From NCBI RefSeq assembly GCF_003790525.1, contig NZ_CP033635.1: a stretch of DNA of 64,000 bases. The stretch is one strand, 5' to 3'. The position numbers and the translations under genes were made by a program. The DNA comes from Escherichia coli (GTDB taxonomy: Bacteria; Pseudomonadota; Gammaproteobacteria; Enterobacterales; Enterobacteriaceae). A model generated the notes under the pieces. The model ran no database searches. It saw only the letters and a program-made list of their open reading frames with translations, and had not been told where the DNA came from. This document shows, piece by piece, positions 46,520 to 53,975 of this stretch. Position 1 is the stretch's first letter. Each line of letters starts with the position of its first letter.

Positions 46520-49435
46520 TTACTGAGTCAGTTTTTTTATCAGGTCGTGAATTTTATCACCTGAAAACTGGGTCATGAAAGTTATCTTTATGGATTTACT
46601 GATTTGTTCGAAGAGTTTCTGTGCATGTTTTATTTTATCGCGTTCTTCATGTCTGAGTTCACGTTTGCCATCAACATTTTTGGTTTCAATAATAAGGTTC
46701 AGATAATCACCCTTTGACGTGTTTACAACATAAGCGAAGTCAGGGGAGTAAGTGTATCCTCCCGCTACAGGAATTTTTATTGAATTTTTGGGGATCTTTG
46801 TGAAGACAATGACTGACCTGACCTCACCCTCTGTCATATTGAGTTTTTCAAGTTCTGAATCATAAAATACTTCTTCAAAAAGATAAGAGTCCAGTGGAGG
46901 GCTTGTATTATCCTGTAAAACGCCAAGATCACTTGACAATACATCAGCAAGATAACCGCCGTCTGCATTGGTGAATTTCGTGGGATGGACAGTTCCTGAT
47001 ATTACATTATACCCAAGGCTGAATTTACTGAACGAGTTATTAAGCAAATACTTGCTGAAACCAGATTTAATTTTTCTGATTGTCTGAATGTTAAGGTATT
47101 CAGTTATATTTATGATGTCTTTTATATCACAAAAAACCTTATGCATGGTGTCATGTTTGACAAAAATAGTCTGTGATAATTTATCAAGGAATTCACGATA
47201 GCTCATTGTGTTTATTTTGTGAAAATTATCCTCATCAACACTGAGAATGCTTTTCGACATTGCCGTATCATTATGGATATAAATTCTTTCAATACGAGTA
47301 TGAGCACCGGATTTGGTAAATCTGTCTGCTTCTTCCAGCATAAACGCTCTGAAAAGGGATAAAAACTCACGTTCACTTTTTATTTTATACTCAATCACGA
47401 CCTTTTGATTGATCAAGTCCCATAGTTCTTTCAGCTCACTGAACTTACCAACACGCATTTTAGTGCGTCTTTTTCCATCAGAGGCTTTTTTTATTTTGCC
47501 TGGTTTCACTCCTGCAGGAAATGCTGCCGGATATCTGGCTTTTAAGCGGCTATAGGCATCTGAATCTTTGAAGTTATCATTATCATCAATGATCTCATCA
47601 TCAAAAATTTCATTCAAGAGTGTTCTGGAGGAAAGCTCCGGATATTGAGACAGGATTTTATCCTTAAGTTCCTGAGTAAACTTACCTGGAACAGTCTCTT
47701 TGAAAGAACTATCGTTGATCTCTTTGACAAGAGAATCGACAAAATCTTTTTCTGTAAAATCAACATAATAGTTGAGGGTAAAATTGCGGTCTTTCACACG
47801 ACACATGTATTCATTCACCGGAAGACGTAAACCACGCCCTACTTCCTGAAGTTTAGATGTGGTGCTACCGCTCGAACGGAGCTTACAAATCTGAAAGACA
47901 TTTGGGTTATCCCATCCCTCACGCAACGTCCATTTAGAGAAAATGAAACGGCGAGGATTTTCTAAAGACAATAGAAGCTCTTTATCATGAAGGATTTCGT
48001 TGATTTCCTGCTCAATTTTATCATCTTTATCACTATTATCTTTTGAAAAATAACCACCATGAACAGAAGATATATCCTTAACAGTTTTTTCAAGGTAGTT
48101 TCTGTAAAACTCATCTTTTTCTGTTTTTAACAGTTCATTTGCTTCTGCCAAAACGTATTCTTCGAACTTAGTTTTCAGGCTTCCTGCAATATCATTACCA
48201 TCACGATAGCCTTCAATGTCATCAATGAAGAAAAGAGTAAGAGGTTTTATGCGTGGCCTTTGTGTCAGATACTCTTTTTCTAACTTAAAGTGTTCTTTGA
48301 CAGCTTTACGTATCATGTTATCAGCAAGTGTCTGATCGTAAGAATAGGGGTTTATCGAACTACCAATTTTTAGCTCAATACCATTACTCAACACTGCTGT
48401 ATTCTTATTTAAAGCATCAAGAGTTAAATCATGGATCGCACTATGCGTCTTAGATAGTGATTCACCTTTGGCTAACTTAAAAATTTTTTTATTATTATTT
48501 TCGTTCAGTTCAAATGTAGCTTCTTTTCCGTCAGATTTGACCAACTTGAGGTTGGCATTACCATCACCAACTATATCCTCAATGTATGCATCAATACCTT
48601 TAACAAGATCTTCATTGAAGGCATCTACGGCTGTAAGACGATAAACTAAGTTCTTATAGCCTTCACTAAAGGTTGCACCATAGCGGATGATATATTGGGC
48701 ATTAAATTTTTGAATATGTTCCCATGTCTTTTTACCAGTAGGAAATTTATGAGGCTCATCAATGATAATGAATGGTTTTATCGCACTAAGTGCAGAAAAT
48801 GGGGTATCAAACTGATTATTAAGCAAGCCAACATCATAAGTGTCAGTTAAAGACTTAGAGTTAATCATCCCTGAATTGATCACAAGAATGTGTATATATT
48901 TCTTATTGAAATTACTTGCTTCAACAAAATCATGGATAGCTTGAGGCATATACGATTTTGTATTTTTACCCGAACGTTTCTGACTTTCAACAACGTAAGT
49001 CTTTAGTTCACGCTCGTAATCATCTCGAAAGTGTTCTTTTATAGCATCGCTTTTTAAAAAGTTAACGGTTCCGGCTTTGATCGATAGGGTAGGAACAATG
49101 ATGATAAACTTGTTAATACCAAATGATTTGTTCAGGTCAAAAATTGTTTTGGTGTAAGTATAAGTTTTACCTGTACCTGTCTCCATAGAAACATCAATTA
49201 CGTTGCTTTTAGCATCGTAATTATCTTTTGAGTGCTCAATACCATTGAACTCCTGAACATTTTTTATGTTGTTGTAGTATTGTTGTTCAGATAGATTCAG
49301 TTCTGGATTAGCTAACAGGCGAATTGCAACATGATCCGTCTGATGAGGTATGGCGGATACAAAGACATTCATTACCGAATCAACGCCAGCCTTTTGATGA
49401 GGTAAATTTTTTTCGAATGTGAACCCTTTAGACAT
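46520..49435 (-). CDS. res: Type III restriction endonuclease subunit Res
   Basis: SF2 helicase motifs METGTGKTYT and IIIDEPHKF; C-terminal PD..(E)xK-like YSPDFAYVV...IIETK; directly downstream of mod; AT-rich. Confidence 0.85.
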   Translation of the reverse strand: MSKGFTFEKNLPHQKAGVDSVMNVFVSAIPHQTDHVAIRLLANPELNLSEQQYYNNIKNVQEFNGIEHSKDNYDAKSNVIDVSMETGTGKTYTYTKTIFDLNKSFGINKFIIIVPTLSIKAGTVNFLKSDAIKEHFRDDYERELKTYVVESQKRSGKNTKSYMPQAIHDFVEASNFNKKYIHILVINSGMINSKSLTDTYDVGLLNNQFDTPFSALSAIKPFIIIDEPHKFPTGKKTWEHIQKFNAQYIIRYGATFSEGYKNLVYRLTAVDAFNEDLVKGIDAYIEDIVGDGNANLKLVKSDGKEATFELNENNNKKIFKLAKGESLSKTHSAIHDLTLDALNKNTAVLSNGIELKIGSSINPYSYDQTLADNMIRKAVKEHFKLEKEYLTQRPRIKPLTLFFIDDIEGYRDGNDIAGSLKTKFEEYVLAEANELLKTEKDEFYRNYLEKTVKDISSVHGGYFSKDNSDKDDKIEQEINEILHDKELLLSLENPRRFIFSKWTLREGWDNPNVFQICKLRSSGSTTSKLQEVGRGLRLPVNEYMCRVKDRNFTLNYYVDFTEKDFVDSLVKEINDSSFKETVPGKFTQELKDKILSQYPELSSRTLLNEIFDDEIIDDNDNFKDSDAYSRLKARYPAAFPAGVKPGKIKKASDGKRRTKMRVGKFSELKELWDLINQKVVIEYKIKSEREFLSLFRAFMLEEADRFTKSGAHTRIERIYIHNDTAMSKSILSVDEDNFHKINTMSYREFLDKLSQTIFVKHDTMHKVFCDIKDIINITEYLNIQTIRKIKSGFSKYLLNNSFSKFSLGYNVISGTVHPTKFTNADGGYLADVLSSDLGVLQDNTSPPLDSYLFEEVFYDSELEKLNMTEGEVRSVIVFTKIPKNSIKIPVAGGYTYSPDFAYVVNTSKGDYLNLIIETKNVDGKRELRHEERDKIKHAQKLFEQISKSIKITFMTQFSGDKIHDLIKKLTQ

Positions 49436-51531: not shown

Positions 51532-51659
51532 GTTGCGTTGCGTTGCGTTGCGTTGCGTTGCGTTGCGTTGCGTTGCGTTGCGTTGCGTTGCGTTGCGTTG
51601 CGTTGCGTTGCGTTGCGTTGCGTTGCGTTGCGTTGCGTTGCGTTGCGTTGCGTTGCGTT
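51532..51659. repeat. pentanucleotide simple-sequence repeat (GCGTT)n, ~25 copies, 58-185 nt upstream of mod start
   Basis: Read directly: uninterrupted gttgc/gcgtt tract from about 51532 to 51659. Confidence 0.95.
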
Positions 51660-51740
51660 TCATTAAATAGCCTCGAGTTTCGTTTTACAGGTTTTTATTC
51701 TAACCTGAATTGTTGATTTTCTGAATAAGTCTGACGTCAG

Positions 51741-51900
51741 TTGTTACGGGAAGGTATCAGAGTGGCTAGATGCACTGTGGCACGTCTCATGGCGGTTATG
51801 GGGCTTGCCGGCGTTCTCCGGGGGGTAAAGCTCCGTGCTACTGTCACCTGGAACGCCGTTGCCGCAGGCGACCGCGTAAACCGTCTGTACCGCCCGGGCC
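51741..51900 (+). pseudogene. IS3-family transposase fragment
   Basis: Translation REGIRVARCTVARLMAVMGL resembles IS3-family OrfB N-terminal region; no integrase core follows. Confidence 0.35.
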
Positions 51901-51940
51901 CAATATTAAGAACTAACGTCATACCAGGGACGTTGTCTGA

Positions 51941-52954
51941 ATGGATGAGAAGCTAAAACATGCGGATTTATCGTCTTTGCCAGAGCAGGTGAGGGTTGCC
52001 GCTAGGGAGCTTGTTGACCTGAAGTTTCGTATCGATATGGCAGCAAGAGGCGGTACGTCAGGGATACCACTTGACCTGCATGGGAGGATGACAGGAGGAG
52101 AATGGGGGCCGCATTGCGGGCTGGAATTTTTCTGCAGCATCATTCCTTTTTTCCCGCGAGATTTTGAAACCTGTTCAGTAACTGAAATGTTGGTTCCTAC
52201 CTTACATACCTTCGGCTGCAACTGGCGTTGGTGGCCCGATCGTTATTGTAGCGACAAAGATGAACACTATATACGGCGTCACATTTTTTCTGATTACGGG
52301 CTGAAAAGTACGAGCTATACCTTCATTCCTCAGTTGGGATTGTTCTGCCCGAGTGAAGGTAAAAATCGTGTTAACTTCTGCCGCCATCACGGTATCGAAT
52401 ATATCCCCGCACAGGTTTATTCCCATGATTACCCAGAAGCAAATCGAATCTCTGTGTACGTTCAGGATACTGCCGGAGGGCTGGATGTGTGGGCCGTTCT
52501 TGATAATCGCTATGTTCAGAAGGTTACTCACTATGCCTTTGCGCTCCCACTTTTGTGCGCTTATGGGGTAGAGTTCCCAGGTAAGTGGCCAGCAGGATGG
52601 CCATCGATATCGGACCTCCTGGCTAATCAACTGTGTTGCACTGATGACACAACCTTTCATAAACCCGTGATCGATATGCAAGCTGTCAGGGATACGCTGG
52701 ATCGTGATGAGAACAGCAGAGAGGATGGGGAGATGTATGTCAAAACCAATGTGGTTGAGCTGCCGCTGGCCGGGCTGGTTCGCTTCATTCTGATCGCAAT
52801 GTTACTGAGTTTAGGTGCGTTGTTCATCCACGAGGTACTGGATGAGGGAAGCCTGTCCAGGATTGCACTGGGAATAAGCACTTTCACGGCTGGCGTGGTT
52901 GCTTCGTTTTTTATCCCAGCGTTCCGTATCAAGAAAAAATATCTTCGCAAATAG
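51941..52954 (+). CDS. hypothetical protein with two C-terminal TM helices
   Basis: 337-aa ORF, Cys/Trp/His-rich soluble domain, hydrophobic helices near residues 280-330. Confidence 0.4.
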   Translation: MDEKLKHADLSSLPEQVRVAARELVDLKFRIDMAARGGTSGIPLDLHGRMTGGEWGPHCGLEFFCSIIPFFPRDFETCSVTEMLVPTLHTFGCNWRWWPDRYCSDKDEHYIRRHIFSDYGLKSTSYTFIPQLGLFCPSEGKNRVNFCRHHGIEYIPAQVYSHDYPEANRISVYVQDTAGGLDVWAVLDNRYVQKVTHYAFALPLLCAYGVEFPGKWPAGWPSISDLLANQLCCTDDTTFHKPVIDMQAVRDTLDRDENSREDGEMYVKTNVVELPLAGLVRFILIAMLLSLGALFIHEVLDEGSLSRIALGISTFTAGVVASFFIPAFRIKKKYLRK

Positions 52955-52974
52955 TTGTGGCATTTCTTGAACAC

Positions 52975-53224
52975 TTTTTCGAGACAGGTTCAACCGCAGG
53001 CATTCAGGCCAAACATGCGGTTAAACTACGTATTCAATTAACTGCCCTAAATATGGCTAAGCGCCCGGACGATATGTCTGTCTGCACCTAGGTGGAAATT
53101 ACACCCTCTAAAGGGAGCTGATCTTAGAGGTCATTGGGAAATATCAGTAAACTCTAACTGGCGAATTACCTTTCGATTTGAAGGCGAAGACGCAATTCTG
53201 GTTGACTATCAGGATTATCATTGA
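52975..53224 (+). pseudogene. higB: higB-like (RelE/ParE superfamily) toxin remnant, frameshifted
   Basis: C-terminal frame reads KLHPLKGADLRGHWEISVNSNWRITFRFEGEDAILVDYQDYH*; N-terminal part in another frame, no intact start. Confidence 0.5.
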
Positions 53225-53232
53225 GGGATAAC

Positions 53233-53975
53233 TGAACCGCCCCGGGAATCCTGGAGACTAAACTCCCTGATAAAGAGGTAAACAGAATGGCTAAAAATAC
53301 TCGTTTTTCCCCCGAAGTCCGTCAGAGGGCGATTCGTATGGTTCTGGAAAGTCAGGGCGAATATGACTCACAGTGGGCGGCAATTTGTTCCATTGCCCCA
53401 AAGATTGGCTGTACACCGGAGACTCTGCGTGTCTGGGTACGCCAGCATGAGCGGGATACCGGAGGCGGTGATGGCGGGCTCACCACCGCTGAACGTCAGC
53501 GTCTGAAAGAGCTGGAACGTGAAAATCGTGAACTGCGCCGCATCGTCTATGGAAACGACATTCGTGCTGGATGCTCTGGAGCAGGCGTTATGGGCCCGTC
53601 GACCGTCCGGCACAGTCCATCACAGTGATAAAGGTTCTCAGTATGTATCGCTGGCCTACACAGCGGCTTAAGGAAGCCGGATTACTGGCATCAACAGGAA
53701 GTACTGGTGACTCGTATGACAACGCGATGGCGGAGAGCATCAATGGCCTTTACAAAGCGGAGGTAATACACCGTAAGAGCTGGAAAAACCGGACAGAAGT
53801 GGAGCTGGCCACACTCACGTGGGTGGACTGGTCTAACAATCGACGATTGCTGGAAAGGCTGGGCCATATCCCACCGGCAGAAGCAGAAAAAGCTTATTAT
53901 GCTTCCATCGGAAACGATGATCTGGCAGCCTGAGTTCACAGATAAAACACTCTCCAGGAAACCCGGGGCGGTTCA
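53233..53975 (+). mobile_element. IS629/IS1203-like (IS3 family) element remnant with internal deletion
   Basis: Left IR TGAACCGCCCCGGGAATCCTGGAGACTAAACTCCCTGA at 53233; orfA 5' part joined to orfB 3' part; imperfect right IR ending 53975; flanked by AAC direct repeats. Confidence 0.7.

Follow-up and report, generated by a model that had tools for sequence, protein, structure and literature searches.

A putative ParB/sulfiredoxin-fold protein with a C-terminal membrane hairpin, encoded in mobile-element cargo of Escherichia coli

The window analysed here is a stretch of 64,000 nucleotides of Escherichia coli contig NZ_CP033635.1 (assembly GCF_003790525.1). Towards its right end lies a forward-strand coding sequence (CDS) with an ATG start, 337 codons and a stop codon; its product, here called X, is RefSeq WP_000343645, labelled 'hypothetical protein', and an identical CDS is annotated in other RefSeq genomes. 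X is an intact member of an uncatalogued protein family which is restricted to mobile elements. Its gene is flanked by an IS3-family transposase fragment on one side and a decayed higBA locus with insertion sequence (IS) remains on the other, next to an opposite-strand restriction-modification (R-M) system of Type III, mod-res. An original prediction, made from the letters of the window, had named both this gene and these flanks; the list of open reading frames (ORFs) confirms the first and RefSeq annotation of identical loci the second. No second copy of X is present within the window. The coordinates of all features are collected in Table 1.

The protein consists of a soluble domain, predicted to be cytoplasmic, a pair of hydrophobic helices and a basic tail. 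Residues 1-262, modelled alone, gave a mean AlphaFold predicted local distance difference test (pLDDT) value of 91.5 and a predicted template modelling (pTM) score of 0.88. By hydropathy, this part contains no hydrophobic segment and no signal-like N-terminus (highest 19-aa Kyte-Doolittle window 1.04), and the sole hydrophobic stretches of the protein are residues 269-301 and 307-328 (19-aa windows of at least 1.6). The two C-terminal helices described in the original prediction are thus recovered by hydropathy, and they are also helices in the full-length AlphaFold model, joined by the short acidic loop HEVLDEG. Under the positive-inside rule the tail, RIKKKYLRK, would be cytoplasmic, giving the hairpin an N-in/C-in topology, and through the hairpin the soluble domain would be held at the inner membrane, on its cytoplasmic side. 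C-terminal hydrophobic segments occur in 132 of the 138 family members of 300-480 aa. The last 12 residues carry a mean net charge of +2.1 across the family, with the consensus P..F..[KR][KR]K.L, and the residues of the hairpin are poorly conserved apart from their hydrophobicity. The description of the soluble domain as rich in Cys, Trp and His also holds (10 Cys, 7 Trp and 11 His, or 10.7% of residues 1-262). Because the cysteines vary across the wider family while some of the tryptophans (W95, W216) are kept, nothing points to a metal cluster bound by Cys.

The 337-aa protein has no match at E<=1 in Pfam, NCBIfam, PADLOC (v2) or PHROGs, and neither its own sequence nor the family profile, run against PDB sequences, gave anything real. 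To this extent the statement that X carries no recognised motif stands; a divergent core of the ParB/sulfiredoxin (Srx) fold can now be assigned by predicted structure. Foldseek with the full-length model ranked the ParB/Srx fold first, independently of the soluble-domain model. The structural match scores are PadC (6.5), human sulfiredoxin (6.2), free serine kinase (6.1), SbnI (5.6), KorB (5.3), Arabidopsis sulfiredoxin (5.3) and pNOB8 ParB-N (5.2), and what lies below these is noise. Only 66-90 residues are aligned, so that the fold forms a core inside a larger, otherwise unmatched domain with about 170 other residues. The core comprises strands 80-86, 125-129, 134-139 and 154-161, helix 142-149 and an inserted helical segment, 99-122. 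The ParB/Srx pattern is matched locally, with a beta-hairpin (125-129, 134-139), a helix starting at GxxR (142-149) and a strand (154-161, 'IPA.V').

The best conserved motif of the family, EGKNRVNFCR, lies within this core. In the hhalign register, for which the Srx and ParB reference sequences were checked against PDB, the sequence GKNRVNFCRHHGIEYIPAQV is aligned on Srx and on ParB GERRFRAAKLAGLDTVPAIV, gap-free through the 'IPA.V' strand in both. G140-K-N-R143 then occupies the GxxR nucleotide-binding position of the superfamily (GERR in ParB, GCHR in sulfiredoxin). Since the register is common to Srx and ParB, R143 falls on the conserved active-site arginine of the superfamily, where nucleoside triphosphate (NTP) binding and hydrolysis and DNase activity take place (PMC5512222). 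The domain of about 260 aa is therefore described as having a divergent ParB/Srx-fold core on the strength of predicted structure and motif register, not of significant sequence similarity. Membership of the superfamily is found at the fold level, including the GxxR arginine, and not at the sequence level, that of PF02195.

X is not a canonical ParB, Noc or KorB. These CTPase clamps differ from it in having a helix-turn-helix (HTH), Box III, the LG[KR]GL motif and a conserved ParA/parS partner. No HTH family was found in any of 46 diverse members, and the structural matches cover the N-domain core alone. In X there is no Box III ENxxR, the residues after strand 154-161 (YPEANRISVY...) being beta-strands and not the Box III helix, and sequence inspection found no N-terminal ParA-binding LG[KR]GL motif. 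ParA/ParG genes were found near X on one plasmid only, on the opposite strand. Noc has a CTP-switched amphipathic helix, whereas X has a permanent transmembrane anchor. The stand-alone ParB/Srx modules (PadC, 6ryk; sulfiredoxin, 1yzs and 1xw3) resemble X in the predicted alpha+beta core, the GxxR arginine and the lack of an HTH, and differ from it by the 262-aa domain built around the core, the C-terminal transmembrane hairpin and the restriction to mobile elements. In particular, the catalytic Cys of the sulfiredoxin sequence F-G-G-C-H-R is replaced in X by Lys141, which is also the family consensus, so X is not a sulfiredoxin.

A word-indexed search gave 47 clusters at 90% identity, which come from Enterobacterales and Aeromonas, are labelled 'hypothetical protein' throughout and lack any Pfam domain. 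When 1.84 billion representatives were scanned exhaustively with HMMER, 169 clusters at 50% identity (E<=1e-3) emerged, mostly of 330-380 aa, and a genome scan extended the family to Pseudomonas, Vibrio, Photobacterium, Neisseria and many Burkholderiales; the hosts of the family are Gamma- and Betaproteobacteria. Length and architecture are constant in homologues from 92% down to about 25% identity, and comparison with the plasmid copy at 92% identity, from which the gene differs by 33 synonymous and 30 nonsynonymous changes, gives a dN/dS (nonsynonymous to synonymous rate ratio) of 0.25; the ORF is therefore not a chance reading frame. Among the positions invariant or nearly so in the 46 diverse members are K28, D32, P69-F70, G92, W95, E139-G140-x-N142-R143-V144, R148, Y164-P165, G209 and W216-P217, and within the motif E139, G140, N142, R143, V144 and R148 are conserved in at least 90%. 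No confident assignment to a non-defence family emerged, and in 29 of 31 homologous loci the ORF is unbroken; of the two outcomes that the original prediction had named as refuting its defence proposal, neither was seen.

The family is confined to plasmids, integrative and conjugative elements (ICEs), Tn7-like or transposon cargo and genomic islands. Relatives are encoded in 78 of 72,556 plasmid records, 52 of the 78 being predicted to be conjugative; non-mobilisable plasmids are included. No relative was found among 50,697 phage records (INPHARED) or 2.9 million viral contigs (IMG/VR), and a phage-borne origin or a superinfection-exclusion gene was rejected on these grounds.

The nearest relative of X (92% amino acid identity) is encoded on Enterobacter asburiae plasmid NZ_CP134640, where it is the third gene of mobA(nikA)-traI(MOB_P relaxase)-X, 26 nt past the relaxase gene; the surrounding transfer region is IncI-type and includes nuc, TrbCBA, ExcA and TraY/DotA. 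DNA homology between window and plasmid extends from about 51885, in the last ~30 nt of the relaxase gene, to about 52966, some 12 nt past the X stop codon. In E. coli TUM1886, a region collinear with the window is annotated with genes of an ICE of the SPI-7/PAPI-1/ICEclc type (STY4528 and TIGR037xx families, TraD, conjugative ATPase, TraG-N, type IV pilus and shufflon). The copy of X in the window is an orphaned fragment of about 1.1 kb from the nikA-nikB-X operon of an IncI-type plasmid, captured in the cargo of a SPI-7/PAPI-1-type ICE. As annotated, the 5' end of the higB pseudogene overlaps the X CDS by 16 nt, an effect of annotation and not an operon link, given that the plasmid homology extends to about 52966. 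An X-higBA operon was rejected, as the homology ends only about 12 nt past the stop codon and the plasmid copies of X are followed by a convergent nuc rather than by higB. The position of X beside mod-res is likewise secondary, because the IS3 fragment cut X from its operon and the ICE cargo was shuffled by IS elements. The argument for defence which the original prediction drew from this adjacency fails, and the neighbourhood says nothing about a functional link between X and the R-M system.

X occurs in 8 of 5,426 complete E. coli genomes, always at the same locus, and the CDS is annotated as such in the six E. coli loci examined. Whatever the family does elsewhere, and independently of any reading of its role, the window copy might be a silent, decaying passenger, a possibility of some weight that nevertheless stays on the doubtful side. 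The IS3 fragment has severed the promoter of the operon, and no sigma-70-like promoter was found between the fragment and the X ATG. The Shine-Dalgarno sequence of the plasmid, GGGAGGTGG, has decayed to GGGACGT--TG. Of the substitutions between the two E. coli alleles, 1 is synonymous and 5 are nonsynonymous, and a truncated 228-aa allele (P0006, equal to window 51941-52624), identical over its span and without the hairpin, occurs in other E. coli; the rarity of X in the species and the surrounding IS and toxin-antitoxin debris fit the same picture. Against decay, the ORF is intact in 8 of 8 genomes, and the window protein departs from the family columns conserved to at least 80% only by S94N. 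Read-through transcription is possible from the IS3 fragment or from further upstream, and six substitutions are too few for a test of selection. The X copy in the E. coli window is probably poorly expressed or silent.

For the family, the preferred reading is that X may be a stand-alone, membrane-tethered, NTP-dependent conflict factor of mobile elements, similar to Osa; for the chain as a whole this is held tentatively, at somewhat less than an even chance. A ParB/Srx core with the conserved arginine, the lack of a DNA-binding domain, and the hairpin with its basic tail together suggest that X works in an NTP-dependent manner on the cytoplasmic side of the inner membrane. The domain would bind, and probably hydrolyse, an NTP via R143. 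This activity, possibly coupled to a nuclease, would be the effector function, by analogy with the HTH-less ParB/Srx proteins Osa and ToxB, and X would act at the membrane on DNA translocation, its target being the coupling protein or relaxosome of a rival or incoming foreign DNA.

A conflict factor is favoured because Osa and ToxB are the best precedents. Osa, a ParB/Srx protein encoded on plasmids, has both ATPase and DNase activity and blocks the transfer of a rival at the coupling protein (PMC5696584, PMC5512222). Like X, the homologous fertility-inhibition factors Osa (pSa/R388), FiwA and ICE1056Fin have the ParB/Srx fold and stand alone on conjugative plasmids or ICEs with no ParA/parS partner. 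X is about 150 aa longer than Osa, has an integral membrane hairpin and showed no specific structural or sequence similarity to it (4ovb). By analogy, Osa may be the closest model for how X works, with which the conjugative carriage (52 of 78 plasmids) and the position in relaxase operons are consistent. ToxB has a divergent ParB-CTPase fold in contact-dependent inhibition (CDI) systems, does not bind DNA and acts through ATP hydrolysis (bioRxiv 10.64898/2026.05.05.722872). It is a C-terminal domain of CdiA with a dedicated immunity gene and is detectable with PF02195, whereas X is free-standing, has no conserved immunity-like partner and is invisible to PF02195.

Several results weigh against an Osa-like conflict factor. 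The fold assignment has no counterpart in profile-profile comparison, hhalign being not significant (Srx E 0.2, ParB-N E 0.17, probability below 1%), and 0 of the 46 members match Pfam ParBc (PF02195) even at E<=5. A subfamily in Aeromonas (276 aa) is without the hairpin. Provision of the anchor in trans for the anchor-less Aeromonas and Vibrio versions was considered and rejected, as the tightly linked upstream partners have no hydrophobic segment. Linkage to a relaxase gene was seen in only about 5 of about 35 loci, the distant members lying beside integrases, UmuDC, regulators or defence systems, and X is dispensable for transfer, as most IncI plasmids are without it.

The wider version of this proposal, in which X founds a single-gene conflict class, an anchored ParB/Srx NTPase or nuclease intercepting DNA that crosses the inner membrane, is regarded as speculative and rather doubtful. 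The DNA intercepted would be an injected phage genome or incoming conjugative single-stranded DNA, or the target would be the coupling protein of a rival element. Through such a class, if real, plasmids and ICEs would combine exclusion with defence.

The context of the gene was surveyed in about 35 loci, with 601 ORFs from 31 loci clustered all-vs-all and 241 neighbours annotated with Pfam. The clustering gave no conserved partner gene, the only recurrent neighbours in the 31 loci being tyrosine recombinases, UmuC/UmuD and IncI genes; Pfam on the 241 neighbours gave Phage_integrase (8), TnpB (4), IMS, SLT, Relaxase, KfrA and others. X lies behind a 213-aa unknown protein, with an integrase nearby, on Aeromonas plasmids, behind a GIY-YIG protein on a Vibrio plasmid, and between a LuxR-type regulator and a tyrosine recombinase on a Pseudomonas syringae plasmid. 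UmuDC, RdgC and SprT genes accompany it in a plasmid accessory region; within Tn7-like transposon cargo it adjoins Gabija and a HigBA-like pair, and on the Buttiauxella chromosome a fimbrial operon.

This variable cargo context, with a stand-alone gene and no conserved partner, also fits a single-gene anti-phage defence by abortive infection, in which sensing of infection or depletion of NTPs would fall to the ParB/Srx domain, and the hairpin would either disrupt the membrane or place the protein where it can block the entry of phage DNA. This reading, close to the original prediction, is considered rather unlikely but a serious rival. PADLOC placed defence systems within 4 kb of X in about a third of some 30 loci, immediately adjacent in three or four, and ParB-like NTPase domains are known from restriction and defence proteins such as GmrSD/BrxU (PMC5512222). 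On Serratia proteamaculans plasmid NZ_MT039220 (L046 4066-7002) a complete type I cyclic oligonucleotide-based antiphage signalling system (CBASS), with an SMODS/AGS-C cyclase and a SLATT_6 effector with two transmembrane segments, is followed 5 nt later by an X that is 50% identical to the window protein, with an Rpn-family nuclease next; this is the tightest link of the family to a known defence system. In Serratia marcescens a weakly TIR-like protein precedes X. However, the neighbouring systems all differ, with Gabija (L023), Avs4 (L026), CBASS (L036, L046 and one more), TIR (L031, L025, with PDC-S35 among the PADLOC systems), PD-Lambda-2 and DpdF, besides the Type III R-M system of the window, and their frequency may be no more than mobile-element cargo would show anyway; integrases, UmuDC and relaxases neighbour X as often. 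No PADLOC model matches X, and its closest relatives (46-92% identity, four lineages) lie in relaxase operons. Conservation of the hairpin in hydrophobicity alone fits an anchor rather than a specific pore, and the hairpin is missing from the Aeromonas subfamily. A defence role at the level of the family is thus neither confirmed nor excluded.

The relaxase operons also bear on another explanation, that X is a positive accessory factor of transfer, a membrane-tethered ParB-like NTP switch recruiting its own relaxosome or plasmid DNA to the coupling protein or type IV secretion system (T4SS). The order nikA-relaxase-X, with a gap of 26-27 nt, is kept in four lineages at 92% (E. asburiae), 82%, 54% (Serratia fonticola pSF002) and 46% (Serratia) identity to the window protein, and a Salmonella ICE carries a 38%-identical member next to ArdC and divergent from the gene of a TraI_2 (MOB_H) relaxase. 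The top structural neighbours include the CTP-binding ParB-type modules PadC, KorB and Noc, and Noc offers a precedent for CTP-controlled recruitment of DNA to the membrane (PMC8429893). An accessory factor is nevertheless distinctly unlikely: neither an HTH nor any other DNA-binding domain was detected, the majority of the family lies away from transfer genes, standard IncI plasmids manage transfer without X, relatives are rare among plasmid records, and non-mobilisable plasmids and Tn7-like cargo also carry X. A last reading makes X a membrane-associated enzyme of the SerK, SbnI or sulfiredoxin type, either a kinase acting on small molecules or proteins or a repair enzyme, with no role in DNA conflict. 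It is highly improbable, as the shared ParB/Srx core alone aligns, the catalytic Cys (GGCHR) is Lys141 in X and no metabolic or redox genes neighbour X in its mobile-element cargo.

Identity of X with Orf35 or Orf36, regulators near nikAB on pCTX-M3, an IncM plasmid, was rejected on size, position and absence of similarity. Orf35 has 121 aa and lies in the leading region, Orf36 has 221 aa with three transmembrane helices and lies between traL and traM (PMC6112013), and tblastn gave no matches of X to IncM or IncL plasmids. On some IncI-type plasmids a gene for a 334-aa protein stands directly 3' of the 82%-identical homologue P0004 (L003 9121-10125). Its sole match, PemK/MazF-like, stays below threshold (E 3e-4; 21 bits, with the cutoff at 23), and the E. 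asburiae and Serratia plasmids do not encode this protein.

The ParB/Srx fold is increasingly met outside chromosome segregation, as in Noc, KorB, PadC, Osa and the ToxB toxin. The combination of a ParB/Srx fold with an integral membrane hairpin, spread across plasmids, ICEs and transposon cargo, would be a new architecture, and surveys seeded on PF02195 miss the family, as do the current defence catalogues. Should X act on DNA translocation at the membrane, it would be a new kind of factor in conflicts between plasmids or between plasmids and phages, with a bearing on the competition and spread of resistance plasmids.

Table 1. Features of the X gene, its product and the neighbouring part of the window
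Feature	Residues	Window position	Strand	Basis
X coding sequence	1-337	51941..52954	+	ORF list
Soluble domain, predicted cytoplasmic	1-262	51941..52726	+	AlphaFold, hydropathy
Predicted ParB/sulfiredoxin-fold core (approximate)	~78-165	52172..52435	+	
Motif EGKNRVNFCR	139-148	52355..52384	+	Conservation, hhalign register
Hydrophobic helix 1 of hairpin	276-299	52766..52837	+	Hydropathy, full-length AlphaFold helix
Hydrophobic helix 2 of hairpin	304-328	52850..52924	+	Hydropathy, full-length AlphaFold helix
Basic C-terminal tail	329-337	52925..52951	+	Sequence
Donor plasmid remnant: last ~30 nt of relaxase gene (nikB/traI) and 26-nt spacer		51885..51940	+	DNA alignment with NZ_CP134640 and its annotation
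IS3-family transposase fragment, truncating the former nikA-nikB-X operon		51735..51890	+	RefSeq annotation of collinear genomes
higB (RelE/ParE-family) pseudogene, frameshifted, as annotated		52939..53224	+	RefSeq annotation
IS fragment between higB and higA		~53287-53935		
res, intact 971-aa ORF		46520-49435	-	
mod start codon (ATG)		51474	-	
Pentanucleotide array (GTTGC)25, GCAAC on the mod strand		51532-51656		
Start codon (ATG) of upstream ORF		51663	-	

The remaining observations concern the neighbours of X in the window. A perfect pentanucleotide array stands 58 nt upstream of the mod start codon, and its unit number is hypervariable among six E. coli genomes (7, 13, 19, 25, 25 and 47). 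An upstream ORF (uORF), MKRNATQRN..., begins directly before the array and reads through it. The number of units sets its end, which falls about 36 nt before mod, at a TGA that shares bases with the mod start codon (ATGA), or, out of frame, beyond the mod ATG; one frame state is common to five of the six genomes. The (GCAAC)n uORF is a candidate for phase-variable control of mod. In a published E. coli case a CAGCGAC[n] repeat lies inside the ORF (PMC5909438), whereas the repeat of the window lies upstream of mod, in the uORF.

The res gene is annotated as frameshifted in the 99.9%-identical TUM1886 locus (L001 6822-9736), which indicates that the R-M system is decaying in some carriers. In the higBA region, the window lineage (6 genomes) has an IS fragment that separates higB from higA, both decayed; its annotation is that of a frameshifted integrase-core/transposase gene. 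Two Shiga toxin-producing E. coli (STEC) genomes lack the fragment, higA following higB directly; the locus has thus decayed stepwise. Relative to the TUM1886 ICE, the window is without the iha siderophore receptor/adhesin gene and without a pair of genes for an EcoRI-family methyltransferase and an HNH endonuclease. Two cargo insertions are missing at about 30.1 kb and 36.8 kb of the window (L020 24409-26719 and 33493-36760), so that the cargo varies between copies of the ICE.

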